Shown here piece by piece: positions 462 through 55,531 of a stretch of DNA of 64,000 nt (positions within the stretch are counted from its first letter, which is position 1; each line of letters starts with the position of its first letter). Source of the DNA: a virus; IMG/VR virus record IMGVR_UViG_3300027805_000008, positions 27,330 through 91,329 of that record; one strand, written 5' to 3'. Position numbers and translations under genes: made by a program. The notes below the pieces were generated by a model. It was not told the origin of the DNA, did not search any database, and saw only the letters and a list, made by a program, of their open reading frames with translations.

Positions 462-806
462 ATGGACATTAACAAAATAAATACAAAGGTGTTAGATGAA
501 GAATCTACCCTAGGCATATATGTCTGGGAAATGCCCGATGGTAGGTGGATTGGAGACGATGATGGAAACTTTCTTTCAGTCACGTCGAAAAAAGGAAATA
601 GATCCAGAGTCGATGCTTTGGCTAGAGAGGTTCGCTCATACGGTATTTATGAGGGGCAGCCTAAATTCCTTTCTGCCAGACGCAAAATCACAGATGAAGA
701 GTTTGCAGAACAAGAACAAAGACTTAAGTGGGGACTAGTTCCAGATCCTTTGGATATTGGAAACTATAAAGACGAAATTAAAAATTTGAGGGCTCAGGGA
801 CAATAA
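462..806 (+). CDS. hypothetical protein upstream of portal
   Basis: ORF coupled to portal (TAATG); start placed at 462 from promoter position. Confidence 0.7.
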   Translation: MDINKINTKVLDEESTLGIYVWEMPDGRWIGDDDGNFLSVTSKKGNRSRVDALAREVRSYGIYEGQPKFLSARRKITDEEFAEQEQRLKWGLVPDPLDIGNYKDEIKNLRAQGQ

Positions 807-2389
807 TGATTAGATACGAAGAAGATAATGATTCTCAAGATATAGCAATATCTAATGTTGCAGACTGGATGAAGTTTAATACTCCAATGCAATCTACAAG
901 CAATGATCCATTTAAAATTGAAGGCGAAGAGATAGCAAAGGTATCTGGCCTCGGCGCATCATTTAGAAGAAAAATGAATCGTGATCTTCAAAAGAGATTC
1001 CAGGGAATCGAAGGAACAGAGACTCAGCAGAACTTACTTGCACAAGCAATTACTGGATATGCAATGTTTGATCTTATCGAGCCTCCATATAATTTAGATT
1101 ATCTTTCAACTATTTATGAAATTTCACCATACAACTATGCAGCAATTAATGCAAAGGTTTCAAATATTGTTGGCCTAGGCCACGATTTTGTTGAGACAAG
1201 AAAAACACAAGAAGCATTTGATAATATAACAGATGATAAATCACTAGATCGTGCACGTAGAAAATTAAATAGACTTCGTCAAGATTTATATGATTGGCTA
1301 GAAGAGTGCAATGAAGAGGAAACGTTTACAGAAACATTGATTAAAGCCTATACAGATGTAGAGGCAACAGGAAATGGCTATATTGAAATAGGCAGAACAT
1401 CAGCTGGAAAGATTGGCTATATCGGACATATACCAGCAAAGACAATGCGTGTTCGCCGCCTTCGTGATGGATTTATTCAATTGCTATACGGTAAGGCTGT
1501 ATTTTTCCGTAACTTTGGAGATCAAGAAACAGAGAATCCAATTGCAGGCGGACTAGATAGACCAAATGAAATTATTCACCTTAAGAAGTACACCCCAACG
1601 AATAACTATTACGGAATCCCAGATATCGTTGCTTCATCAAACGCTATGGCTGGTAACGAGTTTGCTGGCAAGTATAACCTTGACTATTTTGAAAATAAGG
1701 CTGTCCCTAGATATATTATTACAGTAAAGGGAGCAAAGCTTTCTACAGAGTCAGAGCGCAAATTGCTTGAATTTTTTCAGGTTGGCCTAAGAGGTAAGAA
1801 TCACAGATCTTTATATATTCCACTTCCACCAGATTCACCAGACTCAAAGGTTGAGTTTAAGATGGAGCCAATTGAGGCAGGAACTCAAGAGTCTTCATTT
1901 AACGTATATCGTAAATCTAATAGAGACGAAATTCTTTTATCTCATCGTGTCCCAATTAATAAAATCGGAACTCCTGAAGGAGTTAATTTGGCAGTGGCAA
2001 GAGATGCAGATAAAACATTTAGAGAGCAAGTTTGTCGTCCAGCTCAAATGAATTTAGAGAAAAAATTGAATAAAATTATTGAAGAAATGACAGATGCCCT
2101 TCTTCTTAAATTTAATGAGCTTACTTTGACCGACGAGGATACTCGCTCAAAAATTGATGAAAGATATTTAAGAATGCAGGTACTTACCCCTAATGAGGTT
2201 AGAATTAGAATGGGAATGGTTCCTCTAGATGGTGGAGATAAAGTTGTTGAATTGAAGCCACAGCAGCAAGCAGAGGTTAGGGCACAGGCAGGAAAAACCA
2301 GAAATAGAGACTCCGAAAGGTCTGCAAATTCACCAGATATTTCAGGGGAGGGTAGAAATACCCAAGGCGACGGAAGGCAAGTCGACTAG
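806..2389 (+). CDS. portal protein
   Basis: 527 aa; TGNGYIE, EIIHLK, YYGIP, FENKAVP, LTPNEVR..GM.PL..GD motifs of HK97/PBSX-type portals; precedes protease and capsid. Confidence 0.92.
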   Translation: MIRYEEDNDSQDIAISNVADWMKFNTPMQSTSNDPFKIEGEEIAKVSGLGASFRRKMNRDLQKRFQGIEGTETQQNLLAQAITGYAMFDLIEPPYNLDYLSTIYEISPYNYAAINAKVSNIVGLGHDFVETRKTQEAFDNITDDKSLDRARRKLNRLRQDLYDWLEECNEEETFTETLIKAYTDVEATGNGYIEIGRTSAGKIGYIGHIPAKTMRVRRLRDGFIQLLYGKAVFFRNFGDQETENPIAGGLDRPNEIIHLKKYTPTNNYYGIPDIVASSNAMAGNEFAGKYNLDYFENKAVPRYIITVKGAKLSTESERKLLEFFQVGLRGKNHRSLYIPLPPDSPDSKVEFKMEPIEAGTQESSFNVYRKSNRDEILLSHRVPINKIGTPEGVNLAVARDADKTFREQVCRPAQMNLEKKLNKIIEEMTDALLLKFNELTLTDEDTRSKIDERYLRMQVLTPNEVRIRMGMVPLDGGDKVVELKPQQQAEVRAQAGKTRNRDSERSANSPDISGEGRNTQGDGRQVD

Positions 2390-2442: not shown

Positions 2443-3771
2443 ATGAATATTGAGAAATCTCTTTGGTCTTCGCATGGCGACAACATTACGTTGTCCGTGC
2501 CTTTTACCAAAGTTAACCGTGAAAAAAGAACAGTCTCAGGATTTGCAACTCTAGATAATCTTGACCAGACTGGTGACGTTGTTACTGCAGATGCAAGCAT
2601 TAAAGCGTTTGAAAATTTTCGTGGAAATATTCGTGAGATGCATGGATCAAATGCAGTTGGCAAAATGGTTTCATTTAAGCCAGAAACATTTTATGATCCT
2701 ACTACAAAAGAATTTTATAATGGAGTGTATGTTGATGCATACATCTCAAAGGGCGCACAGGATACTTGGGAAAAGATTCTTGATGGAACTTTAGCAGGAT
2801 TTTCAATTGGCGGAAAGATTATAGATTCAGAAAACGAAGTTAACAAGTCAACTGGTAAGCCAGTTAGATTTATTAAAGAATACTCATTGATGGAGCTATC
2901 AGTAGTTGATTCTCCAGCAAACGAGCTATGCAACATTTTGTCTGTTCAAAAAATGAACGGTCAGCTAGTATTTAAAGGAATGGCAACAGAAGTTGTAGCA
3001 GAAAATATTTTTTATTGTGCAGATAGCGATTCGGTATTTGTATCAACAGAATCATCATATGATTCTCCAGTTACAGGTAAGCCTGCGACACTAATTGGGT
3101 GGGTTGAATCAAACGATGTTAACAAAGCAAAAGAGATAGATAAGATTCTTGATTTACATAAAAAGTCAAGATTGTCGATGCCTGAAACACAAATTGCAAA
3201 ACAGGCAGACATAGAAGGAGGTAAAGAAGTGTCAGATAATACAGAAAACGTAGTTGCAGAAGATGCAGTAGCACCAGAAGCAGCCGTAGAAGACACAGCA
3301 GTAGATGCTCCCGTTGAGGAAGCACCAGCTGTTGAAGAAGCTCCTGCAGATGCAGTAGCAGACGCTTCTGCCGAAACTCTAGAAAAAGCAGCCGACGTAT
3401 CAGAAGTTATGGTTGATGAACCTGATTTTGCAAAGATGCTTGGCGATCTTAAAGGCTTTTTCTCAGAAACACTAAATAAGGCTTCAGAAGCAAATGCTGC
3501 TCAAGTTTCAGCTATTAAAGAAACAGTTGAAACATTTAGCAAGAGCGTTGATGGCCGTATTTCAGAATTGGCAGAACAGCATACAGCACTTTCAAAGGCT
3601 GTAGAAGATATCAAGAACACGATTGATGGCGTAGAAAAGCGTGTCGATGCAGTAGAATCAGAGACTGCAATTAAGAAGTCCTCGGACCTTGGCGGGTCTC
3701 AGGAAGTAACAATCAAAAAATCAAAGTGGAACGGTTCTTTCCTCGGTTCCGTAAATGAAATTTTTAACTAA
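2443..3771 (+). CDS. prohead protease fused to acidic/coiled-coil scaffold
   Basis: VSGFA..D..GD, REMH, GFSIGG, ELSVVDSPAN motifs of HK97-family proteases; acidic coiled-coil C-terminal half. Confidence 0.9.
   Translation: MNIEKSLWSSHGDNITLSVPFTKVNREKRTVSGFATLDNLDQTGDVVTADASIKAFENFRGNIREMHGSNAVGKMVSFKPETFYDPTTKEFYNGVYVDAYISKGAQDTWEKILDGTLAGFSIGGKIIDSENEVNKSTGKPVRFIKEYSLMELSVVDSPANELCNILSVQKMNGQLVFKGMATEVVAENIFYCADSDSVFVSTESSYDSPVTGKPATLIGWVESNDVNKAKEIDKILDLHKKSRLSMPETQIAKQADIEGGKEVSDNTENVVAEDAVAPEAAVEDTAVDAPVEEAPAVEEAPADAVADASAETLEKAADVSEVMVDEPDFAKMLGDLKGFFSETLNKASEANAAQVSAIKETVETFSKSVDGRISELAEQHTALSKAVEDIKNTIDGVEKRVDAVESETAIKKSSDLGGSQEVTIKKSKWNGSFLGSVNEIFN
3229..3771 (+). CDS. nested in-frame scaffolding protein (180 aa)
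   Basis: AAGGAGGT at 3215-3222, 6 nt before an in-frame GTG at 3229, exactly where the acidic region begins. Confidence 0.7.
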   Translation: MSDNTENVVAEDAVAPEAAVEDTAVDAPVEEAPAVEEAPADAVADASAETLEKAADVSEVMVDEPDFAKMLGDLKGFFSETLNKASEANAAQVSAIKETVETFSKSVDGRISELAEQHTALSKAVEDIKNTIDGVEKRVDAVESETAIKKSSDLGGSQEVTIKKSKWNGSFLGSVNEIFN

Positions 3772-3793: not shown

Positions 3794-4846
3794 ATGAGTA
3801 ATGAACTATTAGAAAAGACTATTGCTGCAGGTACAACTGCAACAGGTACTTTTGCTTCCACTACAGGTGGAACAGGCGTACACCGTGCATCCGAAAACGG
3901 AAACGGTGGTCTACTAAACGCAGAACAGTCAGCTCGCTTCCTAGACTACATGTTCGATGCTACCGTAATTGGTAAAGTCGCACGTACCGTCCGAATGAGA
4001 GCAGATACTACTGAGATTGATCGTATGTCAGTTGGCGAGAAGCTTATGAAGCTTGCTACTGAAGGAGACGACACAGCAGGTAACAGCGCTGTCACTTTCT
4101 CGAAGATCTCTCTTACAACAAAGAAGCTTCGTCTAGATTGGGAGCTTTCAACAGAATCTCTAGAAGATAATATTGAAGGTGCTGATCTCGAAGATCATAT
4201 TGCCAGAATGATGGCAACACAAGCAGGTAACGATATTGAAGATGTAATCCTTAATGGAAATACATCACTATCATCAGATAACCTATATAAGGCATTTGAT
4301 GGTGTTGTAAAGAAGGCTAAGGCTAACGGTCACGTTGTCGATGCTGCTGGTGCAGGAGTTTCTCGTGCTGTATTCAATTCAGCTCTTAAGGCTCTTCCAC
4401 GTAAGTACAAGCAACGTCGTGCAGACCTTCGCTTCTTGGCAGGTTCAAACCTAATCCAAGACTTCCTATATGCTAACAGCATTGGAACAAACAACACAAT
4501 TCCACAGGATATCGCTTCAAGCGTAATCCGTGGACAAGGCGTACAGCCTCTAGGTGGTCCAGCAGGTTATGTGGCTCCATTCGCATTTGGTATTCCAATT
4601 GTCGAAGTTCCACTACTTCCTGAAGCACAAGATGGCGATTACACAGGTGAGACTGGTAATCACGGAGATATCCACTTGACATTCCCAAATAACGTAGTTA
4701 TTGGTATCAAGCGTGATGTAACTGTTTACCGTTTCTTCTGGCCACGTAAGGACTCAATTGAGTACACAATGTATACTCGTGTTGGCGTCCAGATCGAGCA
4801 AGCAGACGCTTGGGTCGTTGTAAAGAACGTTAAGGTCGCTTCCTAA
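3794..4846 (+). CDS. major capsid protein (HK97 fold)
   Basis: 350 aa after the protease; GGLLNAEQS.RF, LSTESLEDNIEG, DIEDVILNG; biased codon usage; terminator follows. Confidence 0.92.
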   Translation: MSNELLEKTIAAGTTATGTFASTTGGTGVHRASENGNGGLLNAEQSARFLDYMFDATVIGKVARTVRMRADTTEIDRMSVGEKLMKLATEGDDTAGNSAVTFSKISLTTKKLRLDWELSTESLEDNIEGADLEDHIARMMATQAGNDIEDVILNGNTSLSSDNLYKAFDGVVKKAKANGHVVDAAGAGVSRAVFNSALKALPRKYKQRRADLRFLAGSNLIQDFLYANSIGTNNTIPQDIASSVIRGQGVQPLGGPAGYVAPFAFGIPIVEVPLLPEAQDGDYTGETGNHGDIHLTFPNNVVIGIKRDVTVYRFFWPRKDSIEYTMYTRVGVQIEQADAWVVVKNVKVAS

Positions 4847-9687: not shown

Positions 9688-12600
9688 ATGGCTGACGAAA
9701 CAATCAGTACCAAGATAGTCGCTAATGCCGACTTCTCATCCCTTATTGCCGATGTGCATAAGGTTACCGCCAGCCTATCAAAATTACAAGAACAATTAGC
9801 TAACTCTAATAAGATGATGGCAAATCAAATTGCTGTCATGAACAGATCATTTGCAGACACACTAAGAAGTACAGGACAATTCTCCACACACTTTGTAAGC
9901 CTACAATCAGATGTAGAAAAATTTGGTAAAAATCTAGATGGCGGAAAACTAAAGTTAAATCAATATTTTAATACTTTTAGGGATCATGCTAGAACATCTG
10001 GCGGACTTATAAGAGAATTAGCAAAGCAACAAGTAGCCCTTCAGAACTCAGTATTACAACCGCTAGGCAGAAACGCACAAGGACTTATGCAGTTCAATGT
10101 GCATGTTCCAAGAGGGCTAGATGAAGTAAAAAATAAAACAGCAATAGTAAGACAAGAATTGCAAATTATGAATAAGGTTATTCAGGATGGTGCTGGACAA
10201 CTTATTAATTGGGGTAAAAATACTCAGTGGGCAGGCCGTCAGTTAACAGTCGGTTTAACCGTACCACTTGTAGCCTTTGGAGCACAAGCTGCAAAAGCAT
10301 TTAGAGAAGCAGATCAAGAGTTAGTTCGTTTAACTAAGGTTTACGGAGATGTTGCAGGAACATCAGCAGCAGAATTAGGTAGAGTTAGACAAGAAGTTAC
10401 TTCTACTGCAAAAGAAATTTCTGCAGCGATGGGTGTTTCATTTAAAGAAACTATTGGTCTTGCAGCAGATATTGCGGCTACTGGTAAAACTGGAGATGAG
10501 TTACTAGGGTCAATTAAAGAGACCACAAGACTTGCAGTACTTGGAGAAGTAGACAGACAAGAAGCTATGAAGGCCACACTTGCAATTCAGTCAGCATTTA
10601 AGCAAAATACAGATCAACTTTCAGAGTCTATTAACTTCCTTAACGCAGTTGAAAACCAAACTTCAACTACTCTAAATGACCTTGTAGAAGCAATTCCAAA
10701 AGCTGGTCCAGTAATTCAAGGTTTGGGAGGAAGCGTACAAGACTTAGCGCTTTACCTTACAGCTATGCGTGAAGGCGGAATTAACGCATCAGAAGGAGCT
10801 AACGCATTAAAGTCAGCTCTCGCATCTTTAATTAACCCAACAGATGTTGCTGTAGGAAAGTTTCAATCATTAGGAATAGATCTTTTAGGAATAGTAAATA
10901 ACAATGCTGGTAATTTAACTGGAACATTAATGGAATTACAAGGGGCTCTAGATAACCTAGATCCACTTCAAAAACAACAAGCAATCGAGCAGCTATTTGG
11001 AAAATTTCAGTTTTCAAGACTAAATGCTTTATTTGAAAATTTAGGTAGACAGGGAAGTCAAACGCTTCAGGTTTTAGATTTAATGAAGGCTTCTACTGGG
11101 GAATTAGCAACTGTAGCAGATCGAGAATTAGCAGCAGTAACCGAGTCGGCTTCTGGTAAGTATCGCAGGGCAATAGAAAGCTTAAGAGCATCTTTAGCTA
11201 CAGTAGGAGAACAATTCCTTCAAATTAATACGGTTCTTATTCAGGTTATTGATAAGATTGTACAGTTTGCTAATAATTTGCCAGGCCCAGTAAAACAAAT
11301 ACTTGCATTAGCTGGAGGATTTACAGCAATCATAGGTCCAGTAATTATGTTAACTGGTGTACTTGCTAACTTCTTTGGGTATTTGTTAAAGGGCGCATTC
11401 CATATGAAGGCATTCTTTAAGGGTGGCGAAGGATGGAAATATTTAACTCCAGAAATGTTAGCAGCAGAAAAAGCTGGCAGGCTAGTTGAGCAATCATTTT
11501 ACGATGACGCAAAAGCTGCAGCTGTACTACAGCAAGCGCTTAGAAATTTATTAGATGAATTTGCTATTCTAGAACAAAAAGCTAAAATAGGGTCAATGTC
11601 AATAAATCCAGCAGTATCAACAATGGCTGGAAGCATGATAGTGGGCGGACAGAGAGTGGTTAATCCCTCACACCCACTTGCGGGAGAACAGGGAACAAGA
11701 GCAAGTTCTCACATGGTTCCAAGAGCTGGTATGACGGAAGCTCAAAGACTGCAACAAACAATGTTTGGAATGGTTCCAGGATCAATCCCAGTAAATCAGA
11801 AAATTGGTCAGAACCCACAAATTTATATGAACGAACCTCTTCCAAATGTTCCTGGACTTACAACGGTTAATGGGGTATCTACAGGCATTGTTTCTGGAGA
11901 AGCTGCAAGATGGCATGCAATGATGGCTACACTTGGAATGCAGTCAAAGGCGGAAATTGAAACTTTAAAGAAAACAATTGTGGCTACTGGAACTGTAAGC
12001 AAAGAATTTATGATGCAGTTTGATGATATTCTTCCTGTTGTTTCAAGACTTACAGATAATGCAGCAAGAGAATCTGCAATGATTGTCGCAGAACTTCGTG
12101 CAGGAAAAATGACTGTAGAAGCTGCTAGGGCAAAAATTGTAGCTCTTAATTTGCAAACAGAACAAATGATTGCTTCTTCTGTTCAATCACAAGCACTGGC
12201 TATGGGCAGAACAATTAATCCAACAATGGTTCCAACATTAAATCAACCAGTAGTTGATGCTACTGGAAAATCAAATATGAGAGAGTTGTTTAAAAAGGGT
12301 AAAACAAGAGATTTCATTAATCGTATTGCTGGAGTATTGGGTGTAAGAACATCAGGTGCTGGGTACAATGTTGAAACCACAATTCCTAAAAAATTTAATA
12401 GAGGAAATATAGTTCCAGGATCTGGAAATACAGATACAGTTCCAGCAATGCTTACACCTGGAGAGTTTGTTGTTAATAAGCAAGCAACTCAGCAAAATAG
12501 GCCATTACTAGAAGCAATCAACAATAGTACATTGGGTGGGCAAGCAACTCCTGGAAGATCAAATTACGGTCCAATTAATCCAGGACTAATGGCAAATGTC

Positions 12601-15600
12601 TCAAGGCTATACACAAGGACTGGAAATTTTGCACGTAGGTGGTTCTGGGATACAAGCACTGGATCAAGTCTTTCTGGGCAGAGAGACTCACTTGTCAGAT
12701 CAATAAGAAAAAGACCAATACTAAATAAGAGCGGTGTTCCTTATTCTGAAGCAGAATTAAGAAAAGCTCCTAAAGAAGAAATTCAAGCATTATGGGCTAA
12801 CTATGATAGAGGACATGTAGCTCCACACAGGTCTATAGGCGGAACAGATAACTACTTTGCCCCAGGAATATTAATGCCTATGTTTAGAGGATCCAATAGG
12901 TCAATGATCTCTGCAGGAGATCCAATAGCAATTGCAAAAAGTTTAGAAAATCAATCAATTCATCCAACAGTATTTTTAGATGAAGCAGCCGAAGCATTTG
13001 GTTATGTTGCTGGTTCAAAAACAGATGCAGCTTATGAAGCATTGATAAAAGGATTATATAAGAGAGGTGCTAAGAAATTTGATCCTAGATCAGGTGATTC
13101 ATTTGAAAAGTTTGCGTTTGAAACAATATCTCCGTTTTTACAAAATATTAAAAATAGCTCTGGGGCAAATCTATTAGATGATCTTTCAAGAATTGGAACA
13201 GTAAGAGGAACTCAGGCAAATAGATCTTCTGGTGGACGTTCTGGAACTGGTTCAATAGCACCGTTTGCCGTAGCAGATGACTATTTCACACTAAACATGA
13301 ATACTGGCGGAATGGTTCCATCACCAAATGGACAAAAGTATAATATGGGCGGAATGGTTCAGGGTTACAATAGAGGCGGAATGGTAGCTGGACTACTTGG
13401 AGCTTCAGCAGTCGGTCTTGGCGGACAGATGCTAGGAAATGCAGTAGGCGGAGGACTTGGGTCAGCTATTACAATGGGCTCCTATCTTGCAAGTAGTATG
13501 ATAGGATTTGGTGGAATGGGTGGTAGAGGAGATCAAAAGGGTCCAGGTTTTGTTGGAAGACAAATGCAAAAAATTGATCCACAAGGTAATTTAACTAAGC
13601 CAATTGGACCATTAAATAACTTATCTGATGCAACTAAAAAGCTCTCAGGAAATCTGGGTGGGGTAAGCAGAATGTTTGGCCCATTATTAAGAGGCTTCAC
13701 AACTTTACTAAGACTAACAAGCCCGCTTGGAATAGCAATTACTGGAGTAACTGCTGCAATTGGATTTTTTGTAAAGGCTCAAAAAGAAAAAGCAAAAGCT
13801 TTAGAAACAGGTAGACAAGCATTCGGTATGGATGCTGCTGCTGCAGAAAAAGCAGGATTCAAATATACAGATTATAACGCTAAAATAAAGGTAGCAATTG
13901 AAGATGCTAAGGCATTAAAAGAAAGAAATATGATGATTTACGAAAGCATGACAAAGGCTAACGTTCCAATCAACATGACAATTGAACAATACAAAAAGCT
14001 TAAAGAACAAGTAAAGTCAACAATGGGAAGTTACATAGACCTATTTGATCAAACAGATAGAAAAGATGTTGGCAATGTTGCTGTTCAGTTAAAGGCACAA
14101 TTTATGGCAGCTGGAGATTCTGCAGAGGTTGCTACTGCTAAAATATTTACAATGATTAAGCAGTCTGAAAATGCTAATATGGCTGCGTCAGCAATTAGCT
14201 CTAATGCCTTCCAAAGCATTCAAAATATGGAACAGGCTTCTGCTCAAACAGTAAAAACATTTGAAGCAGCAATGAAAACTGGAGATGCTGAATCGCAAGC
14301 CAGGGCTTTGCACAGCACATTTATGGCAATGGATGCTACTCTAGAAGAAACCATTAGAAAGCAAAAAGAGCTAGGGGATTCAGGAAAAGCTAATGCAGAG
14401 CAGGTCGGCAGTGCAATAGAACAGAAGCTTGCAAGTATTAATAAGTCTTTTGGCACTCAGGCAAACCTATCAAAAGATGTTATTAGTGAACTAGGTAAAA
14501 CAGATCCTCTATTAGCGGAGATGTTAAATAGCACAGATACTCTTTCTAGTGCATGGGCTAAATACAGATTAATTCTTCAGGGTGCTGCTACCGATCTTGA
14601 GAATATGACTGGAGAAGCAGCAATCGCTGCGCTTTCTTTAAATGAAATAGTGAAGGCTCAAGTTCAACTAAACCCAGCTGTTGCTGCTGCAAATAAATCA
14701 TATGCTGGTATGACTGCTAGAATTAAAGAACTTGAAAAGGCACAAAGAGGCCAGTCTGTTAAAGCTCAATATAATGCTAAAGAAGAATCAGCTAGACTGC
14801 AAAAACAAATTGCAGAAATTAAAAAGGCTGCTCAAGAAAAAATTGATGGAATTCGCAAAGCAACTGAAGCAGAAAATACTCAGCTAGAAATTCAAAAAGC
14901 TCAACTAAGAGCTCAGCAAATGTTGATCCAGGGCAATATGTCTGGATACGCTGAAGAGCAAATGACAATTGAGCAGTTAATGAATGAGGCTAATCGTAAA
15001 GATGCAGAAGAAGCAATTATCGCTAAGGCAGAAATTGATATTAAGCCTCTTCAGGATGCACTTGATGCTATAGCAGACAAGAATGACAAAGCTGCAAAGA
15101 AGGCGGCACTTGCAGGAGAGAGCTTATCAGATCTTAGAACCAAGGCAAGCGATTACAATACTAAGCTTCAGGAGTATACACAAAATCTAAACACTACAAT
15201 GTTTAAGTATTTGACAGACATTAACTTTAAAAATACTCCAGAGTATGAAGCAGCAATAAAAGCCTTAGACAATCTTGGCCAAAAGCTAGGAATTAAAACT
15301 CCAGCGAAGGATGTTGTTTCAGAAATTACTAACGCATTAAAAAATGGAATTAACGCAGAAAACGTAACTCTTTATGCCGAAAAGGTTCAAGAAGGACAAA
15401 GAAGAGACTACACTAATAATTTAAAAAATATGACAGAAACCATTAAAAGGGGAGGCGGAGACGTAACAAAAATTTATGATCCAAATACTCAAGAATTAAC
15501 TCCACAAGCTAGAAGCGCTCTTATTAAGGGAGATGAGTTAATGCCTGGTGATACATTTACAGATAGTCAGGGAAGACCGTATAAGGTAACTAGAAAATTT

Positions 15601-15978
15601 GGTCCTGGACATGGAGCAGAATCAACAGGAGACCGAACTGTAAAAACAACACCGTCAATGTCGGCAAAAAGATTTTTGGGTGGAAGAGTTGTGCCAGGAA
15701 TTCCTTATACAATTAATGATGGTAAGAAAACAGAGGGGGTAGTGTTTGATTATCCAGGAATGATTAAACCAAATATTGAAACAGCCTTTAATATTCCTAA
15801 TGGAACTAAATATAACGGAATGGGCGGATCTACTACTTCAAATAGCAGTAACGTATATAATATAGAGATTGCTCTAAACGGAACAAACGTCACAGCAGAT
15901 GATGTTATAAACAGAATGAAACGAGAGATGGCTTTGATTAATGCTAAAGAAGGAATAAGTAGAAGGGTTGGTGCATAA
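9688..15978 (+). CDS. tape measure protein with internal nuclease-like insertion
   Basis: 2096 aa after the chaperone; TP901-type core (LTVGLTVPL, GGINASEGANALKS, AIEQLFGK); GNTDTVPAMLTPGEFVV; DRGH at aa 1040-1043. Confidence 0.92.
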   Translation: MADETISTKIVANADFSSLIADVHKVTASLSKLQEQLANSNKMMANQIAVMNRSFADTLRSTGQFSTHFVSLQSDVEKFGKNLDGGKLKLNQYFNTFRDHARTSGGLIRELAKQQVALQNSVLQPLGRNAQGLMQFNVHVPRGLDEVKNKTAIVRQELQIMNKVIQDGAGQLINWGKNTQWAGRQLTVGLTVPLVAFGAQAAKAFREADQELVRLTKVYGDVAGTSAAELGRVRQEVTSTAKEISAAMGVSFKETIGLAADIAATGKTGDELLGSIKETTRLAVLGEVDRQEAMKATLAIQSAFKQNTDQLSESINFLNAVENQTSTTLNDLVEAIPKAGPVIQGLGGSVQDLALYLTAMREGGINASEGANALKSALASLINPTDVAVGKFQSLGIDLLGIVNNNAGNLTGTLMELQGALDNLDPLQKQQAIEQLFGKFQFSRLNALFENLGRQGSQTLQVLDLMKASTGELATVADRELAAVTESASGKYRRAIESLRASLATVGEQFLQINTVLIQVIDKIVQFANNLPGPVKQILALAGGFTAIIGPVIMLTGVLANFFGYLLKGAFHMKAFFKGGEGWKYLTPEMLAAEKAGRLVEQSFYDDAKAAAVLQQALRNLLDEFAILEQKAKIGSMSINPAVSTMAGSMIVGGQRVVNPSHPLAGEQGTRASSHMVPRAGMTEAQRLQQTMFGMVPGSIPVNQKIGQNPQIYMNEPLPNVPGLTTVNGVSTGIVSGEAARWHAMMATLGMQSKAEIETLKKTIVATGTVSKEFMMQFDDILPVVSRLTDNAARESAMIVAELRAGKMTVEAARAKIVALNLQTEQMIASSVQSQALAMGRTINPTMVPTLNQPVVDATGKSNMRELFKKGKTRDFINRIAGVLGVRTSGAGYNVETTIPKKFNRGNIVPGSGNTDTVPAMLTPGEFVVNKQATQQNRPLLEAINNSTLGGQATPGRSNYGPINPGLMANVSRLYTRTGNFARRWFWDTSTGSSLSGQRDSLVRSIRKRPILNKSGVPYSEAELRKAPKEEIQALWANYDRGHVAPHRSIGGTDNYFAPGILMPMFRGSNRSMISAGDPIAIAKSLENQSIHPTVFLDEAAEAFGYVAGSKTDAAYEALIKGLYKRGAKKFDPRSGDSFEKFAFETISPFLQNIKNSSGANLLDDLSRIGTVRGTQANRSSGGRSGTGSIAPFAVADDYFTLNMNTGGMVPSPNGQKYNMGGMVQGYNRGGMVAGLLGASAVGLGGQMLGNAVGGGLGSAITMGSYLASSMIGFGGMGGRGDQKGPGFVGRQMQKIDPQGNLTKPIGPLNNLSDATKKLSGNLGGVSRMFGPLLRGFTTLLRLTSPLGIAITGVTAAIGFFVKAQKEKAKALETGRQAFGMDAAAAEKAGFKYTDYNAKIKVAIEDAKALKERNMMIYESMTKANVPINMTIEQYKKLKEQVKSTMGSYIDLFDQTDRKDVGNVAVQLKAQFMAAGDSAEVATAKIFTMIKQSENANMAASAISSNAFQSIQNMEQASAQTVKTFEAAMKTGDAESQARALHSTFMAMDATLEETIRKQKELGDSGKANAEQVGSAIEQKLASINKSFGTQANLSKDVISELGKTDPLLAEMLNSTDTLSSAWAKYRLILQGAATDLENMTGEAAIAALSLNEIVKAQVQLNPAVAAANKSYAGMTARIKELEKAQRGQSVKAQYNAKEESARLQKQIAEIKKAAQEKIDGIRKATEAENTQLEIQKAQLRAQQMLIQGNMSGYAEEQMTIEQLMNEANRKDAEEAIIAKAEIDIKPLQDALDAIADKNDKAAKKAALAGESLSDLRTKASDYNTKLQEYTQNLNTTMFKYLTDINFKNTPEYEAAIKALDNLGQKLGIKTPAKDVVSEITNALKNGINAENVTLYAEKVQEGQRRDYTNNLKNMTETIKRGGGDVTKIYDPNTQELTPQARSALIKGDELMPGDTFTDSQGRPYKVTRKFGPGHGAESTGDRTVKTTPSMSAKRFLGGRVVPGIPYTINDGKKTEGVVFDYPGMIKPNIETAFNIPNGTKYNGMGGSTTSNSSNVYNIEIALNGTNVTADDVINRMKREMALINAKEGISRRVGA

Positions 15979-49178: not shown

Positions 49179-52100
49179 TTGACTAGAAAGTTACAGTACT
49201 TTGTAACCAGCCTTTTTATTATCGGCTGGCTTTTCCTTTTTGGGCCCAGTGTAGCAAATGCTGATGAGCCAACAGTTCAAGTAACTCCAGCTAATCCTTC
49301 TTCAGATACCGCCACAGCAACCACTCCTGTTACAGTTGAGATAGTTGCAGACAAGGTTGAAGCGGCAGCAGAGACATTGCAGGCAGCGGCAGAAACACAG
49401 GCAACAGCAATCACTACTACAATTCAGGCAAATGTTCCTAACACAACAACAGAGCAAGCAGCTACAATTGCTACTACACAAGAACCAATTGCTACTGCAG
49501 TAGCAGAGGCTACGGTAAAGGTACAAGAGGCCACAACAGCGATTCAGTCTGCTGAGACAGCAGTTGCAGTTGCAGAGTCAGCAACAACAGTTGTTGTTGC
49601 AGCAACCGCAGTTGTTGCAGAAAAGGTTGAAGAGGTTGCAACAGCAACAGCGGCTAAAGATACTGCTGTGCAAAATAACCAAGTAGCCGAAACAAATTTA
49701 AATACGCAAACTCCTATTACTATTGCTTCTCAGGCGGCCTACGATACAGCAAGAGATAACACAAATGCAGCACAGACAGACTTAAATGCCAAGCAGGAAA
49801 CTTTAAATTCAGCCACGACTGCAGTTCAAGTACAGACAGCAGTTGTTGCATTAGATCAATCTGCGGTAAATGCGGCACAAGCAGTAGTAGATGCAAATAC
49901 TTCTCCAGGACTTAATGTAACCGTTTACAGCAATCCAGGAACTGGGGGTTCCCCAGCTCAGGGAGGTACTGTTGTCTATACTGGAAAAGATACTAACGGT
50001 ATCAATGAGCAATACGGAGGCGGCGGCCCAACAGTAAATGGTGGGACAACAACTACTACTGAAACATTTAGCGGCAATAAGTTAAATACAAATATTGGAA
50101 TTACAGTAAATGGTACTCCTGTTTCAACTACAAACAATAGCGGTGTTTATATTGCTTCAATTGGTTGGCCAGGGGGACAAGATCCATCGCTAACCATGTA
50201 TGGTGCAACTGCTAATACAACTATAACAGTTCCAGCAAATACAGTTAATGCGAGTTTTCAAATGTTTGCTAAGAATGGCGACTCAACTGGAACTGTAACA
50301 TATACAGATGGAACAACAGAGTCGTTCACCTTGCAAAACAATGTAAGCTCTGAGTATCCAAATTATACTCATACAGAGACCTTTGTAGCACCAGAAGGAA
50401 AGAAGATAGCAACTATTCTTATACCAGCAAACTGGGACTATTATGCTATAGATAACGTATCTGCAACTACACAAACTACAACAACCGTAACAGAAGATTT
50501 TCAAATTAAGTGGGATGGAATATGGACTCCACAGACAACGGGAACTCAGTATATTACTGCTCCAGCAGATGACGGAGTTATATTAAAATTAGATGGGCAA
50601 GTAGTTATTAATGACTGGGTTGATAAAGGTGGCGGAGGGTCAACAGCAGATGTTTCGACCACAGCTGGGGTCTCTAAAACTTTTGAAATGTGGTACTACG
50701 AAAATGGTGGAGGAGCTGCAGTTTCCCTACAAAGATATAATGGAAGCACTTGGGAGGTAATTCCAGCTTCTGAGTTCTCTACTTCTTCAGCAACACCTCA
50801 ACAAATAGCAACCTTAAATGCCGCAAAGACTACCCTTGCGACAGATACGGCTACTCTAAATACTTTAACTACACAAAAAGTAACAGCTGAGACCGCAGTA
50901 AACGCTGCAACTTCTGCTTTAACAACTGCACAAGCAACTCAATCTTCCGCTGCCACCACCATGCTTGCCCAAGAAGCAGTTCAAGCTGTAGTTCAGCAGG
51001 CAGCTTGGGATACTCGTGCAGCAGTAGAAACTACTACAGCAAACTTGACAGCAGCAAATCAAAACTTAACAAATGCTAATCAAAACTTAACAACTGCTAA
51101 TCAAAACCTACAGGTGGCAATTCAAGCAGCAGACTCTCTTGCTAATACGGCAACAACAAAAGTAAATGAAGCAGTAACTGCAATGACAAATGCTGCTCAG
51201 GTTACTACAAATTATTATGCAGAACAGCAAGCGTTAGCACAAGCAGCTGCACAAGCTGCAGCGCAAGCTGCAGCACAACAAGCCGCACAAGAAGCTACAG
51301 CAGCGGAAGCAGCAGCAGCTCAAGCAGAAGCACAAGCTAAAGCAGCCGCTGAAGCAGCGGCAAAAGCTGAAGCAGAAGCAAAAGCAGCTGCAGAAGCTGC
51401 AGCAAAAGCAGAAGCCGAAGCTAAAGCAGCCGCTGAAGCAGCGGCAAAAGCTGAAGCAGATAGAGTTGCTGCTGAAGAAGCAGCAGCTAAGGCAGAGGCA
51501 GATCGTGTAGCAGCAGAAGAAGCTGCAGCAAAAGCAGAGCAAGAGGCTAAAGAGCAAGCGGAAGCAGATGCAAAAGCAGAATCAGATAGATTAGAAGCAG
51601 AGGCAGAGGCTGCAAGAGAAGCGGAAGAGCAAGCAAAGGCAGAAGCAGAGGCTAAGGCACAAGAAGAAGCAAACGCTAAAGCAGAAGCAGAAGCAAAGCA
51701 AGCGGAGGCTGAAGCTAAACAAGCAGAAGCAGATAAGTTAAAGGCGGAAGCAGAAGCAAAGCAAGCAGAAAAGGAAGCCCTTGATAAAGCAATAGAAGAT
51801 GCTAAAGCAGGTAAAGAATTAACTGAAGAGCAAAAAGATGCAGTAGTTGCTACATTGATTGAAGATTTAAAGCCAGGGCAAGCAGTAAGTTCTGCAGACA
51901 TTAAAGCATCTGGAATTGAGTATAAAGATCTTCCAGCAGCAACACCAGTAGATGTTAGAACAGATGAAAATGGAAATGCAGTTGTAATTACTGCAGCAGT
52001 TGCTGCACAAGTAGAGCTACTTCAGGATCCAGGAGCACTAGTAGAAGAATTATTTACAAATCCAGCAGCAGCTTTGGCGGCATTTGGATCAATTGGCGCA

Positions 52101-52298
52101 GACATGTCTGAAGAAGAAAGAGAAGAAGCAACAGAGATGGTTGTAGCTACAGTAGTTGCAGCAGGTGCTGCAATCAATGCAGCAGCAGTTGCCACAGGAG
52201 GAGCCACAGGAGGTGGCACGGGAGGCGGAGGAAGTTCTGGAGGAGGTGGCGCTTCAGGTGCCAATTCACCAGGTTCACGAGGAGGTAGAAAATGGTAA
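49179..52298 (+). CDS. giant secreted/surface protein: signal peptide, coiled stalk, split PA14 domain, Ala/Glu/Lys repeats, C-terminal hydrophobic and Gly-rich tail
   Basis: ANA-DE signal cleavage; FQIKWDG...ADDGV...INDW...YYENGGGA (PA14); TTG start after AGGAG. Confidence 0.8.
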   Translation: MTRKLQYFVTSLFIIGWLFLFGPSVANADEPTVQVTPANPSSDTATATTPVTVEIVADKVEAAAETLQAAAETQATAITTTIQANVPNTTTEQAATIATTQEPIATAVAEATVKVQEATTAIQSAETAVAVAESATTVVVAATAVVAEKVEEVATATAAKDTAVQNNQVAETNLNTQTPITIASQAAYDTARDNTNAAQTDLNAKQETLNSATTAVQVQTAVVALDQSAVNAAQAVVDANTSPGLNVTVYSNPGTGGSPAQGGTVVYTGKDTNGINEQYGGGGPTVNGGTTTTTETFSGNKLNTNIGITVNGTPVSTTNNSGVYIASIGWPGGQDPSLTMYGATANTTITVPANTVNASFQMFAKNGDSTGTVTYTDGTTESFTLQNNVSSEYPNYTHTETFVAPEGKKIATILIPANWDYYAIDNVSATTQTTTTVTEDFQIKWDGIWTPQTTGTQYITAPADDGVILKLDGQVVINDWVDKGGGGSTADVSTTAGVSKTFEMWYYENGGGAAVSLQRYNGSTWEVIPASEFSTSSATPQQIATLNAAKTTLATDTATLNTLTTQKVTAETAVNAATSALTTAQATQSSAATTMLAQEAVQAVVQQAAWDTRAAVETTTANLTAANQNLTNANQNLTTANQNLQVAIQAADSLANTATTKVNEAVTAMTNAAQVTTNYYAEQQALAQAAAQAAAQAAAQQAAQEATAAEAAAAQAEAQAKAAAEAAAKAEAEAKAAAEAAAKAEAEAKAAAEAAAKAEADRVAAEEAAAKAEADRVAAEEAAAKAEQEAKEQAEADAKAESDRLEAEAEAAREAEEQAKAEAEAKAQEEANAKAEAEAKQAEAEAKQAEADKLKAEAEAKQAEKEALDKAIEDAKAGKELTEEQKDAVVATLIEDLKPGQAVSSADIKASGIEYKDLPAATPVDVRTDENGNAVVITAAVAAQVELLQDPGALVEELFTNPAAALAAFGSIGADMSEEEREEATEMVVATVVAAGAAINAAAVATGGATGGGTGGGGSSGGGGASGANSPGSRGGRKW
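51334..51780 (+). repeat. TolA-like coding repeats
   Basis: 14-aa units (AKAAAEAAAKAEAE x3, DRVAAEEAAAKAE x2); identical 43-nt copies at 51334 and 51418. Confidence 0.9.
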
Positions 52299-52488: not shown

Positions 52489-52704
52489 ATGAGGAAATTA
52501 ATTACTATTGCCCTATCTGGGCTATTAATGCTATCATTGACTGGATGCGATTCTTTGAATAGATACCGCTATCCATGTCAAGATCCTAAAAATTGGGAAA
52601 TTGCAGAATGTAATCCTCCAGAATGTGAAGCCTCACAGACTTGCACGAAAGATGTAATAACAATTACACCTACTACACCAGAACAGGAAATAACAAATGG
52701 CTAA
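52489..52704 (+). CDS. small Cys-rich lipoprotein
   Basis: Lipobox LTG-C20 plus four further Cys; leaderless after TATAAT at 52477. Confidence 0.75.
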   Translation: MRKLITIALSGLLMLSLTGCDSLNRYRYPCQDPKNWEIAECNPPECEASQTCTKDVITITPTTPEQEITNG

Positions 52705-53107
52705 AGAAAAACTAACGCCCGCAGACCTAGATGCTCGTTTAAAGTTTATTCTAGGAATAACTCTTGGAAGCATTCTGTTTCTAACAGCTCTTGGAATTAT
52801 CTACGGATTGTTGTTTGTAACACAGCCTATCGGAGCACAGTCAGAGAACGATAAAATGTTTTTTAACGTTCTAGGTAGTATTGCAACATTTATTACAGGA
52901 ACACTCGCAGGAATTCTAATTGGTAACTCTGGTGCTAAAGATATTATGAAGGCTCAGTTAGATAACAAAGAGATGGATGCTAAGAACACACAAGCAGACA
53001 AGAAGCTTGAAGCAGAAATTGATGCAACTGCAGCACGTTTAGCAGCAAAGCCAGATGGCGCAATGCCAGCAGAGCAGCCAGTTGATGAAGATTGGGATAA
53101 AGACTAA
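52697..53107 (+). CDS. two-TM membrane protein (holin candidate)
   Basis: Two hydrophobic helices, charged tail, in lysis cassette. Confidence 0.6.
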   Translation: MAKEKLTPADLDARLKFILGITLGSILFLTALGIIYGLLFVTQPIGAQSENDKMFFNVLGSIATFITGTLAGILIGNSGAKDIMKAQLDNKEMDAKNTQADKKLEAEIDATAARLAAKPDGAMPAEQPVDEDWDKD

Positions 53108-53331
53108 TGAAGATGAAAGATAAGTTAATGTGGGTTATCACCCTCGGAATACTTGGCTTCATTGGCTTAGTAGTTCTTGGTGAATACGCTTCAATGCTTG
53201 CACAACAGTTTACTTCAGGTGAAAAATATGGAACCAATGAAGACGCAATTGCCCTAGTGCAAAATGCACTTGTAGGACTTATAGGAATTATCGGCGGATA
53301 TTTTGCTGGTAAAAGTAAAGGTGATGAATAA
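53107..53331 (+). CDS. two-TM membrane protein (holin/antiholin candidate)
   Basis: ITLG motif and Gly-spaced second helix shared with previous gene. Confidence 0.55.
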   Translation: MKMKDKLMWVITLGILGFIGLVVLGEYASMLAQQFTSGEKYGTNEDAIALVQNALVGLIGIIGGYFAGKSKGDE

Positions 53332-53927
53332 TGTCGCAAGATTTTCCAGTACCAGCAGAAACAGCAAAAGCACCTAAAGGTAGCGTTGCCAGATTAATTC
53401 AGGTTGCTAAATCTCAAGTAGGATACATCGAAGGTCCTAAAGATAATGAGACAAAGTACGGCGCATATACAAAAGCTAACTTCCAGCCTTGGTGCGGATC
53501 TTTTGTAAACTGGTGTGCAAATGAAGCAGGAGTAAAGATTCCTAATACAGTTTATACCCCAGGTGGCGCAGCAGCATTTAAGAAGGCTAATGCATGGATT
53601 GACGGAGACATTGCAGATCCAGAGCCAGGAGATATCGCCTATTTTGATTTCCCTTCAGACGGTGTCGATAGAATTTCTCACGTAGGAATTGTTATTGAAG
53701 ATAACGAAGATGGAACAGTGTGGTGCATTGAAGGAAATACTTCTTCAAAGAAATCTGGAAGCCAAAGAAATGGCGGAGAGGCCTGTAAACAACTTCGTGC
53801 ATTTAAGAAAAACAAAGCAGGAGTACAGGTTTCTATAGTAGGGTTTGGACGACCAAAGTTTAAATCTGGAGGAGCAACAAGGCCAGCTGTAACAGGCTCT
53901 GCAGTATGCCCAACCTGCGGAAAGTAA
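53331..53927 (+). CDS. CHAP-domain endolysin
   Basis: A..QVGY.E..N.TKYG...PWC.SFV.W, PGD, SHVGIV, EGNT, GFGRP. Confidence 0.88.
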   Translation: MSQDFPVPAETAKAPKGSVARLIQVAKSQVGYIEGPKDNETKYGAYTKANFQPWCGSFVNWCANEAGVKIPNTVYTPGGAAAFKKANAWIDGDIADPEPGDIAYFDFPSDGVDRISHVGIVIEDNEDGTVWCIEGNTSSKKSGSQRNGGEACKQLRAFKKNKAGVQVSIVGFGRPKFKSGGATRPAVTGSAVCPTCGK

Positions 53928-54072: not shown

Positions 54073-54939
54073 ATGGCAAAAGAAGGATATAAGCCTACTG
54101 CTGGAATGCAATCAGCAGCACGACGTGCTATTAAGCTAAAAGAGCAGGGAAAAGCAAAAGGTGCTGGAACAGTAGTTGGCTGGACTCGTGCAGGACAATT
54201 AGCTCGTGGAGAAACATTAAGCCTATCTACAGTTAAACGTATGTATTCTTATTTCTCACGTCATGAAGTAGATAAAAAAGGTAAAGATTGGGATAACTCA
54301 GAAAATCCTTCAAACGGAAAGATTATGTGGTTAGCATGGGGCGGAGATGCAGGATTCTCTTGGTCTCGTAAAATAGTAGAGAGAGAGAAGAATATGAAGA
54401 AGTCACTTACAACAAATGAATTAGTAGAAGAAATTAAAGATATGCTGGATGATGTAATTAATCCAGCAGATACAGTAGTTGAAATTCCAGATGATGAAGA
54501 AATTACAAAAGCCCTACGCCCTGAAGTTACAAAAGAACAACTGGGCATGGTTATTGAACATTTAATGGAAGCAATTGAGGGCATGATTGAGATGCCAGAA
54601 GAGGAAGACTCAGAAGAAGAGTCAGATTCAGCAGAAATGGAAGTAGAAGACGCAAATCCTTCCAATCCAGCTCCAGTTGGAGATCCTATGAAGAACGAAG
54701 TAAATTGGCCAGTATCAAAATCAAATGACGAAGATAAAGAAGACTATGAGTCAGACAATGAAGAAGAAGATAAATGGGACAATATGGCCAAAGCTTGCTG
54801 GTCAGGATATACCCAAAGAGGCATGAAAGAAAAGAATGGCAGAATGGTTCCAAATTGTGTGCCAGTTGAAAAAGCACAAGACCTATCAGAAGCAGATCAA
54901 GTCAAAAAGTCCATATGGGATGGAACTTTTATTAAATAG
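54073..54939 (+). CDS. probable internal head (capsid cargo) polyprotein
   Basis: Basic N-terminal domain (TVKRMYSYFSRH, LAWGG), acidic linker, CWSGY...VPNCVP motif, C-terminal KKSIWDGTF matching the scaffold end. Confidence 0.6.
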   Translation: MAKEGYKPTAGMQSAARRAIKLKEQGKAKGAGTVVGWTRAGQLARGETLSLSTVKRMYSYFSRHEVDKKGKDWDNSENPSNGKIMWLAWGGDAGFSWSRKIVEREKNMKKSLTTNELVEEIKDMLDDVINPADTVVEIPDDEEITKALRPEVTKEQLGMVIEHLMEAIEGMIEMPEEEDSEEESDSAEMEVEDANPSNPAPVGDPMKNEVNWPVSKSNDEDKEDYESDNEEEDKWDNMAKACWSGYTQRGMKEKNGRMVPNCVPVEKAQDLSEADQVKKSIWDGTFIK

Positions 54940-54942
54940 CTA

Positions 54943-55001
54943 TTGACATAGCCGTAGCAAAACCTGTATAATATATATCAGTGGGATGCTACGGTTTATG
55001 T
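54943..55001 (+). promoter_or_regulatory. promoter of whiB operon enclosed by an inverted repeat
   Basis: TTGACA-18-TATAAT; CCGTAGCA (54952-59) / TGCTACGG (54987-94). Confidence 0.7.
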
Positions 55002-55011
55002 TTAAGGAAAT

Positions 55012-55239
55012 ATGTTAAATTTAACAGAACTAGGTGTCGAAGTCTTTATAAAAAAGGCAAAGAATATAACTCCATATTGGGACAATTACGATCTGATTAT
55101 ATGGAAAAAAGACAATAGTGGATTTACAAACATAAAGGGCATGTTCAGAGAGAACGCTTGGGGAACAGCAGAAAGAATTGCTGTTAACGATAACGGAATA
55201 TGGAAGTTGCCCGCAAAATATGTCAGAAATTTTAAATGA
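55012..55239 (+). CDS. hypothetical protein
   Basis: AAGGA SD; Trp-rich. Confidence 0.65.
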   Translation: MLNLTELGVEVFIKKAKNITPYWDNYDLIIWKKDNSGFTNIKGMFRENAWGTAERIAVNDNGIWKLPAKYVRNFK

Positions 55240-55531
55240 TCTAGGCATAGATTCAGAAGATTTAGATTGGTTTCACCTTGGCATATGCAGAGGCATGGAC
55301 ACCAATTTATTTTATGATAAATATGAATCAGATTCTAATATAGCAAAAAATATTGATGAAATGTGTTTAAGCTGTCCAGTTATAAGCATGTGTTATGAAT
55401 CTGCAGTAGAGAATAATGAATACGGTGTTTGGGGTGGAGTTTATTTGAGCCTAGGATCAATAGATAAATCTAAAAATTTACACAAAACACAAGAGACTTG
55501 GAAAAGGTTAAAGAAAAAAAATGTTTATTGA
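55220..55531 (+). CDS. whiB: WhiB-family transcription factor
   Basis: W...C...D..LF...CLSCPV...C...EYGVWGG. Confidence 0.92.
   Translation: MSEILNDLGIDSEDLDWFHLGICRGMDTNLFYDKYESDSNIAKNIDEMCLSCPVISMCYESAVENNEYGVWGGVYLSLGSIDKSKNLHKTQETWKRLKKKNVY

Follow-up and report, generated by a model that had tools for sequence, protein, structure and literature searches.

Why should a small protein encoded behind the lysis genes of a phage end in the same peptide as the scaffold of that phage's head? The question is raised by the window, i.e., the whole stretch of 64,000 nucleotides analysed here, which is the right-hand 64 kb of a 91,329-bp IMG/VR virus contig and carries all of its genes on the + strand. 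The source is an uncultured actinobacterial phage. Its capsid protein is 58% identical to counterparts in Stanwilliamsviridae (Streptomyces phages) and its protease-scaffold 44%, while complete relatives of the phage measure 105-113 kb and have terminal repeats. We refer to the small protein as the cargo polyprotein. The genes on which the argument turns are the following (window coordinates; a slash within a sequence marks a predicted or known cut).

806..2389, + strand: portal protein (Pfam PF04860), head-module context
2443..3771, + strand: prohead protease (S78) fused to scaffold, 442 aa, with 9 hydrophobic-x-K-(S/A) sites (Pfam PF04586, phrog_9427)
3712..3768, + strand: scaffold tail IKK/SKWNGSFLGSVNEIFN, conserved from these phages to Streptomyces phages (SKWGGHFLSVSDIK)
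3794..4846, + strand: major capsid protein of the HK97 fold family (Pfam PF05065)
52697-53107 and 53107-53331, + strand: two small membrane proteins of the lysis block
53331-53927, + strand: CHAP endolysin of the lysis block (PF05257)
54073..54939, + strand: cargo polyprotein ORF, 288 aa, pI 4.7, last gene of the late/lysis block (matches phrog_2859 and phrog_9737)
55178-55531, + strand: WhiB-family transcription factor (PF02467, E 1.8e-12), a pointer to an actinobacterial host

The S78 match of the protease-scaffold (PF04586, E 4.6e-6) lies above the curated cut-off, so the phage that encodes the cargo also encodes an S78 protease; the scaffold part of the fusion is acidic and helical. The capsid gene is the next gene downstream, and its product is presumed to be what the scaffold tail and the cargo tail both bind. 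Immediately 5' of the cargo gene lies the lysis block (52697-53927), and right behind the cargo stop, before a block of small genes, stands a perfect sigma-70 consensus (TTGACA, 18 nt, TATAAT; 54943-54972), which indicates that the cargo gene ends the late/lysis transcription unit. A 1039-aa protein with a PA14 domain (PF07691) is encoded between the tail and lysis genes, at 49179-52298.

The cargo polyprotein and the scaffold share a C-terminal peptide

The cargo polyprotein ends in VKKSIWDGTFIK (longer form ...QVKKSIWDGTFIK) and the S78 protease-scaffold in IKKSKWNGSFLGSVNEIFN (longer form ...TIKKSKWNGSFLGSVNEIFN). A common motif at both ends had been claimed in an earlier sequence-only reading of this DNA, and both its sequences and its coordinates hold: VKKSIWDGTF lies at 54901-54930 in the cargo and IKKSKWNGSF at 3712-3741 in the scaffold, ending 2 and 9 residues before the respective C-termini. 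Searched in six frames over the whole 91,329-bp contig, the patterns [KR]S.W[DNSGA][GNKD].F and W[DNSG]G[TSKAIV]F matched the cargo and scaffold ORFs only. When the scaffold 10-mer was compared with the phage proteome, the cargo tail was the top match (BLOSUM62 score 39; next 26), and a score of 39 was reached in 0.2% of 500 shuffled proteomes, a figure into which the C-terminal placement of both motifs does not enter. A match of the two tails by chance is unlikely. Recent duplication was considered as the origin of the shared motif and rejected: the DNA of the two stretches differs, and the likeness therefore exists at the level of the protein. In sequence terms, we thus find a short terminal peptide common to otherwise unrelated proteins of known or probable head-interior location, which is the mark of capsid-targeting or cargo-loading peptides.

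Modular build and predicted cleavage sites of the cargo polyprotein

The cargo polyprotein can be divided into the following parts.

54073..54402, + strand: N-terminal basic domain (N-domain), aa 1-110, pI 10.2, five-helix fold (AF2 pLDDT 90.8)
54403..54792, + strand: three acidic spacers, aa 111-240, pI 4.1, with predicted cut sites after K110, K146, K216 and K240
54793..54873, + strand: two-Cys module ACWSGY...VPNCVPVEK, aa 241-267 (27 aa), pI 9.3, predicted beta-hairpin
54874..54900, + strand: variable linker preceding the tag, replaced or down to 1-2 residues in homologues
54901..54936, + strand: C-terminal tag VKK/SIWDGTFIK, aa 277-288

The make-up proposed from the sequence alone (a basic domain of ~110 aa, acidic spacers and a Cys peptide) was therefore right, as the pI values of 10.2, 4.1 and 9.3 show. 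Further pieces between predicted sites are a linker at aa 268-279 (pI 4.6) and the tail itself at aa 280-288 (pI 5.6). The two-Cys module, flanked by K240/A241 and K267/A268, recurs in many mosaic proteins, and the invariant residues of the N-domain are R63-H64, D67-K68 and W89-G-G-D92. The polyprotein has 4165 homologues at E<=1e-3, and a Pfam search with it returned no family at E<=0.01, so no recognisable effector enzyme domain was detected. Structure in the AF2 model is confined to the N-domain, a helix at aa 154-172 and the hairpin at aa 246-264; the tail is disordered in this monomer model and lies, with five of the six K-S/A sites, in low-confidence linkers, while K110/S111 sits within a predicted helix. 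The helix at aa 154-172 (54532-54588) is amphipathic (KEQLGMVIEHLMEAIEGMI) and near-invariant within an otherwise variable acidic spacer, and it might contact the scaffold or the protease. Taken together, the cargo is probably a passenger of the head interior, composed of a basic five-helix domain, acidic spacers, a two-Cys hairpin and a disordered tail of 9-12 residues that copies the scaffold's.

All of the hydrophobic-x-K-(S/A) sites that had been listed earlier for the cargo and the scaffold are present, and both proteins are enriched in them. Specifically, the cargo contains 6 against 0.87 expected (p about 5e-5) and the protease-scaffold 9 against 1.9 expected (p about 1e-4), which places the two at ranks 1 and 2 of 79 ORFs with an enrichment of 5-7 times. 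The third rank is held by the tape measure protein (9688-15978; PF10145), with 14 sites against 6.9 expected (p about 0.006), where processing and helix composition are alike possible. Across the cargo homologues, these sites keep a hydrophobic P3, vary freely at P2 and mostly have S or A at P1'; the share of sequences with K at P1 lies at 82-100%, according to the site, and reaches 100% at three of the six. Four site columns are likewise conserved among scaffolds that are only about 45% identical. The capsid start LLEKT, also noted previously, was found as MSNELLEK/T, a candidate site in an N-terminus that is conserved in Streptomyces phage Peebs. We predict that the K-S/A sites are S78 cleavage sites, cut after Lys.

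Given that the cargo ends in the scaffold's peptide and has predicted sites at most of its junctions, it is probably carried into the head and cut there. We assign a probability of roughly 0.6 to the reading that the cargo would be loaded into the procapsid by mimicry of the scaffold tail and then be cut at its junctions by the prohead protease.

The tag is conserved in homologues of the cargo and of the scaffold

Conservation of the motif in related phages had been suggested as a check, and once run it went in favour of the tag: the tail is present in nearly all of the 120 cargo homologues listed of 4165. Most of these 120 end K-S-(I/V/L/F)-W-x-G-x-F, with variants WGK.F, WAN.F and FSG.F. Their linker before the tag is AQDLSEADQV, SYDEEKEEEPKI or only 1-2 residues, and in some homologues (e.g., P0099 and G004) the tag comes after an extra last module that is DUF5872-like. 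In an alignment of 41 sequences, K279 and W282 were near-invariant and S280 and F286 invariant.

The tail of the protease-scaffold is nearly invariant across ten related genomes. It takes the form EKS(L/V/A)WGG(R/S)FL in eight other lineages and SKWGGHFLSVSDIK in Peebs, and the scaffold of Rhodococcus phage Weasels2 retains the upstream TAFKKS alone. Although Peebs has the scaffold tail, neither a second tagged ORF nor a cargo homologue was found when both were looked for there. No co-variation between scaffold and cargo tails was visible, since scaffold tails are almost invariant within each lineage; in one phage, two tail variants occur side by side. Each of three complete relatives has exactly two tagged ORFs, scaffold and cargo, and it is a limit on the address-tag reading that here, as in those three, a single tagged cargo accompanies the scaffold.

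Some cargo tails are degenerate. Those of P0026 and G010 read VVKSFFSNLDPYDL and EKSSFFSSFNPYSL, and the HK97 protease gp4 (L104:3348-4025) ends LLQSIKSFPSNLGK, a short likeness to a C-terminus known for capsid targeting and the second such likeness noted here; Duda et al. are said to have described such a C-terminal targeting region of gp4 in 2013. In cargo homologues of the P0026 type (G005 and G006), a degenerate internal tail is followed by a PDGSYPI..NAI..GR module that ends IPDNWK. The same module is found inside the DSL-LC01 protease-scaffold, and it may be an alternative head anchor.

The tag resembles the scaffold spoke of HK97

The scaffold domain of HK97 gp5 ends EELIKSWDGKQGTFGAKTFNK/SLGS. 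In relatives of gp5 (n=120), the residues K, S, W, D/N, G and F are near-invariant while their neighbours vary, and many of these relatives read KSWNGSKGSF, near the KSKWNGSF of the window's scaffold. The spoke motif, K-S-W-(D/N)-G-x(0-3)-(S/T)-F, is thus found in sequence at the C-terminal end of the scaffold; we estimate from residue frequencies that a chance match at that position of a 100-residue domain would have a probability of the order of 1e-6 to 1e-4. The hydrophobic-x-K-(S/A) rule is also obeyed by TFNK/S in HK97, the one cut of the archetypal S78 protease that is known from experiment. In the cryo-EM structure of HK97 Prohead I, residues 76-103 run from a helix (S76-S88) through a turn into a strand (K92-G97), which on the inner surface joins the three-strand P-domain sheet of the capsid, and cleavage takes place at K103/S104 (PMC10275583). 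Phage D3 has the same helix-turn-strand, there called PDAR, placed on a hydrophobic patch of the P-domain (PMC12749128); the spoke motif was looked for in the D3 sequence and is absent, meaning that the motif is not universal to the fold. Judged by this short-motif match, the tag looks like the turn and strand of the HK97 spoke.

The tail could instead be an element by which the protease docks on or recognises its substrates, or the P' side of a cleavage site, rather than a capsid-binding tag. It would then be common to scaffold and passenger because both are substrates of the S78 protease, and encapsidation, if any, would come about otherwise. The most conserved tail residues, K-S, do themselves obey the site rule, HK97 has L-x-K-S at the matching place, and relatives without the tail exist. 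However, W, G and F are conserved far above the level of other K-S/A sites, and in HK97 the residues that match them make contact with the capsid P-domain rather than with the protease (PMC10275583). The tail is, moreover, terminal or near-terminal, save in some module proteins where it is internal. On balance, we consider it unlikely that protease recognition accounts for the tail.

In cultured phages the N-terminal domain lies in head modules

A full HMMER scan of 1.8 billion representatives identified 4661 proteins that carry the N-domain. These are mosaics of small modules, namely CxGY..GCH, PCWDGY..PNCVP, Hva1_TUDOR, DUF5824, DUF5872, PDGSFPI..NAI..GR and four-Cys modules. In cultured phages, the N-domain always lies within the head module. 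For example, Roseobacter phage CRP-811 has a single 816-aa protein with the order N-domain, Tudor, protease, scaffold and capsid; in Limnohabitans phage DC31 the N-domain is joined to an XkdF-type protease and the scaffold has a Tudor insert; and in Vibrio phage 1.122.A it opens the protein that occupies the scaffold slot. It is also contained in HGTV-1 gp11 and in a DSL-LC01 protein annotated as capsid maturation protease. BFVD matches of the N-domain are named prohead protease, XkdF, portal and capsid protein (MCP). A fold search with Foldseek against the PDB gave nothing at E<=0.001 (best 2.3), and the best Z of 4.9 from VIA-align against 48,161 chains is at noise level for helical models.

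Among 94 N-domain representatives, the co-resident Pfam families included Phage_Mu_F (6), ADP-ribosyltransferases (ART; 4), Acb1 (2), Peptidase_S78 (2), DUF2213 (2), zeta toxin and a portal, and proteins such as P0176 and P0182 join MuF, N-domain and ART. Head-packaged polyvalent and MuF-linked effectors have been described with the same pattern (PMC5512222). In one relative (L214; G030:C1:51614-54802), the protease-scaffold is 531 aa long and has an insert of ~90 aa between its protease and scaffold parts. This insert, which is absent from the other aligned scaffolds and Tudor/SH3-like by eye only, may be a passenger inside the scaffold protein itself.

These fusions bear on a further explanation, by which the cargo would be no passenger meant for delivery but an accessory scaffold, or a modulator of assembly, which tunes that process by vying with the main scaffold for its place on the capsid, as in the case of CpmB. 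CpmB, which has a hook in common with the 80alpha scaffold, is a precedent (PMC5644958), and the near-invariant helix at aa 154-172 resembles scaffold segments, as do the acidic helical spacers. Yet the modules are elsewhere fused to MuF, ADP-ribosyltransferase, Acb1 and zeta-toxin domains, which are typical of delivered effectors, and module content is freely swapped among relatives, unlike in a scaffold that sets geometry. An assembly role of this kind is improbable in our estimation.

A common tail and a common junction rule in mosaic proteins

Many N-domain mosaics end in W-x-G-S-(P/A)-F tails. At 80 loci of one lineage set, a tail of the form W-x-(G/D/S/E/N/K)-x(1,2)-F, typically W-x-G-S-x-F, was found in 40 of 93 module ORFs compared with 3 of 537 others. 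Two adjacent tagged genes occur at many of these 80 loci; genome G029 has two besides the scaffold, and hence three tagged proteins. About a third of the related module proteins stop at the Tudor module and have no tail, and in some others the tail is internal, with another module after it. Many tail-less forms (L149, L150, L155, L171 and others) end ...GHKLKTLRA(S/K) at the point where the tagged ones run on as KK/S-x-W-x-G-x-F.

We also found that (LIVMFA)-x-K, mostly followed by A or S, occurs at a fixed offset just upstream of the module start. It was present in 82 of 91 N-domain contexts, 51 of 56 Cys-module contexts, 39 of 40 Tudor contexts and all 7 DUF5824 contexts (179/194 in all), against a rate of 20% at random positions. 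A single junction rule before four unrelated modules is what would be expected of a common processing protease. The K-A/S junction could, alternatively, be the conserved start of each module and not a cut site. The cargo would then be packaged via its tail and stay unprocessed, and the K-S/A pattern would stem from helix composition and from the way modules begin: each module could open with conserved residues K-A-D/E-S/T, and the tape measure protein is mildly enriched too. Against this, one three-residue rule holds before four modules that are unrelated to each other, the HK97 cut obeys it as well, and P1 is fixed while P2 varies freely, which leaves packaging with no subsequent cleavage a doubtful account.

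That the tail similarity has no bearing on the head at all, being due to chance, an inherited remnant or another purpose (e.g., turnover or localisation), is highly improbable: the motif is short, but in this phage only the two proteins have it, thousands of sequences conserve it, and it is present on the scaffold from these phages through Streptomyces phages.

A proposed route into the capsid

The core of the sequence-only reading (i.e., a C-terminal address tag, hydrophobic-x-K-(S/A) processing and modular passengers) is partly supported, in that independent comparisons of sequences back it. From these we infer binding, packaging, cleavage, ejection and the roles of the modules, in three steps. 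First, during procapsid assembly, the cargo tail would bind the inner face of the capsid at the site of the scaffold tail, most likely as the HK97 spoke does, with W-(D/N)-G making the turn and a short strand then extending the P-domain sheet; with its tail bound there, the passenger would be enclosed. Second, the S78 prohead protease would cut both scaffold and passenger after Lys at the hydrophobic-x-K-(S/A) junctions, and since one predicted cut falls at the start of the tag, the modules would be freed from the shell. Third, the acidic spacers would be lost, and the basic modules would remain with the DNA and may enter the host.

A broader reading, which we hold tentatively and at somewhat below even odds, is that many uncultured actinobacterial and other aquatic phages may use an encapsulin-like loading code. 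A tag of 9-12 residues, homologous to the HK97 spoke, would be borne by interchangeable module strings that the prohead protease splits at a universal hydrophobic-x-K/(A/S) junction, so as to deliver mixed small proteins, some of them anti-defence, along with the DNA. The N-domain, two-Cys hairpin, Tudor-like, DUF5872 and DUF5824 modules are neighbours of ADP-ribosyltransferases and Acb1 in related proteins. If the tail does load procapsids, it would show how internal proteins are packed in phages that have neither T4-type cores nor MuF anchors, and it would link phage scaffolds to encapsulin cargo peptides via a defined site of the HK97 fold. It would also offer a means of filling capsids with proteins of choice, by way of a very short natural tag and a linker that the phage protease itself cleaves, and it would mark out as likely injected proteins thousands of mosaics that have no annotation in aquatic viromes.

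Comparison with known systems

Known phage-head targeting peptides include the T4 CTS, the HK97 protease tail and P1 Dar. Such peptides, scaffold-tail sharing (CpmB) and polyvalent packaged proteins are thus already known. A literature search on the motif and on virion proteomes of Stanwilliamsviridae or DSL-LC01 gave nothing relevant, and we found in the literature no description of a phage's own scaffold peptide on an unlinked module string or of a single junction rule that joins unrelated modules. What this analysis adds is the match to the HK97 spoke and cleavage site, the cross-lineage statistics of tails and junctions, the multi-cargo loci, and the fusions, including those to MuF-ART and Acb1.

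The likeness to the HK97 gp5 spoke consists in L-x-K-S-W-(D/N)-G...(S/T)-F at the scaffold's C-terminal end and in an S78-family protease in both systems. In HK97, however, the element is a covalent part of the capsid protein and has three extra residues between turn and strand, whereas here it ends a separate scaffold and is copied to an unlinked protein. SaPI1 CpmB and the 80alpha scaffold have a C-terminal RIIK hook in common and bind the same capsid site (PMC5644958), and there too two unrelated proteins carry the scaffold's C-terminal peptide. By contrast with our cargo, CpmB is a satellite's size-redirecting scaffold and not the phage's own cargo, and both its motif and its bound helix and hook differ.

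In T4, a short terminal peptide directs the internal proteins (IPI-III and Alt) into the prohead and is removed by the prohead protease, and the basic internal proteins stay with the DNA (PMC9958956, PMC9026906). The T4 targeting sequence sits at the N-terminus and addresses the scaffold core, and the protease that removes it belongs to family S77 and cuts at L-x-E; the tag described here is C-terminal and of the same kind as the scaffold's own tail.

Encapsulin shells, which have the HK97 fold, take up cargo proteins of various kinds through a short C-terminal peptide that attaches to the shell interior. Scaffold, protease and DNA are all missing from encapsulins, unlike in the present case; the parallel between cargo and scaffold has been discussed for them (PMC13669383).

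Finally, phage polyvalent proteins and MuF-fused effectors are strings of unrelated modules whose genes lie close to late genes and for which packaging and injection have been predicted (PMC5512222, Iyer et al. 2017). Like these, the cargo has several unrelated modules in one polypeptide (three in the window), and its N-domain occurs in MuF-N-domain-ART proteins and is fused to virion genes (MuF, portal and protease) in relatives. It differs from them in its small size and in lacking a MuF or portal anchor as well as any recognisable enzyme domain. In place of such an anchor, a linear tail like the scaffold's would hold the cargo in the head, and the prohead protease, rather than a peptidase of the polypeptide's own, would process it.
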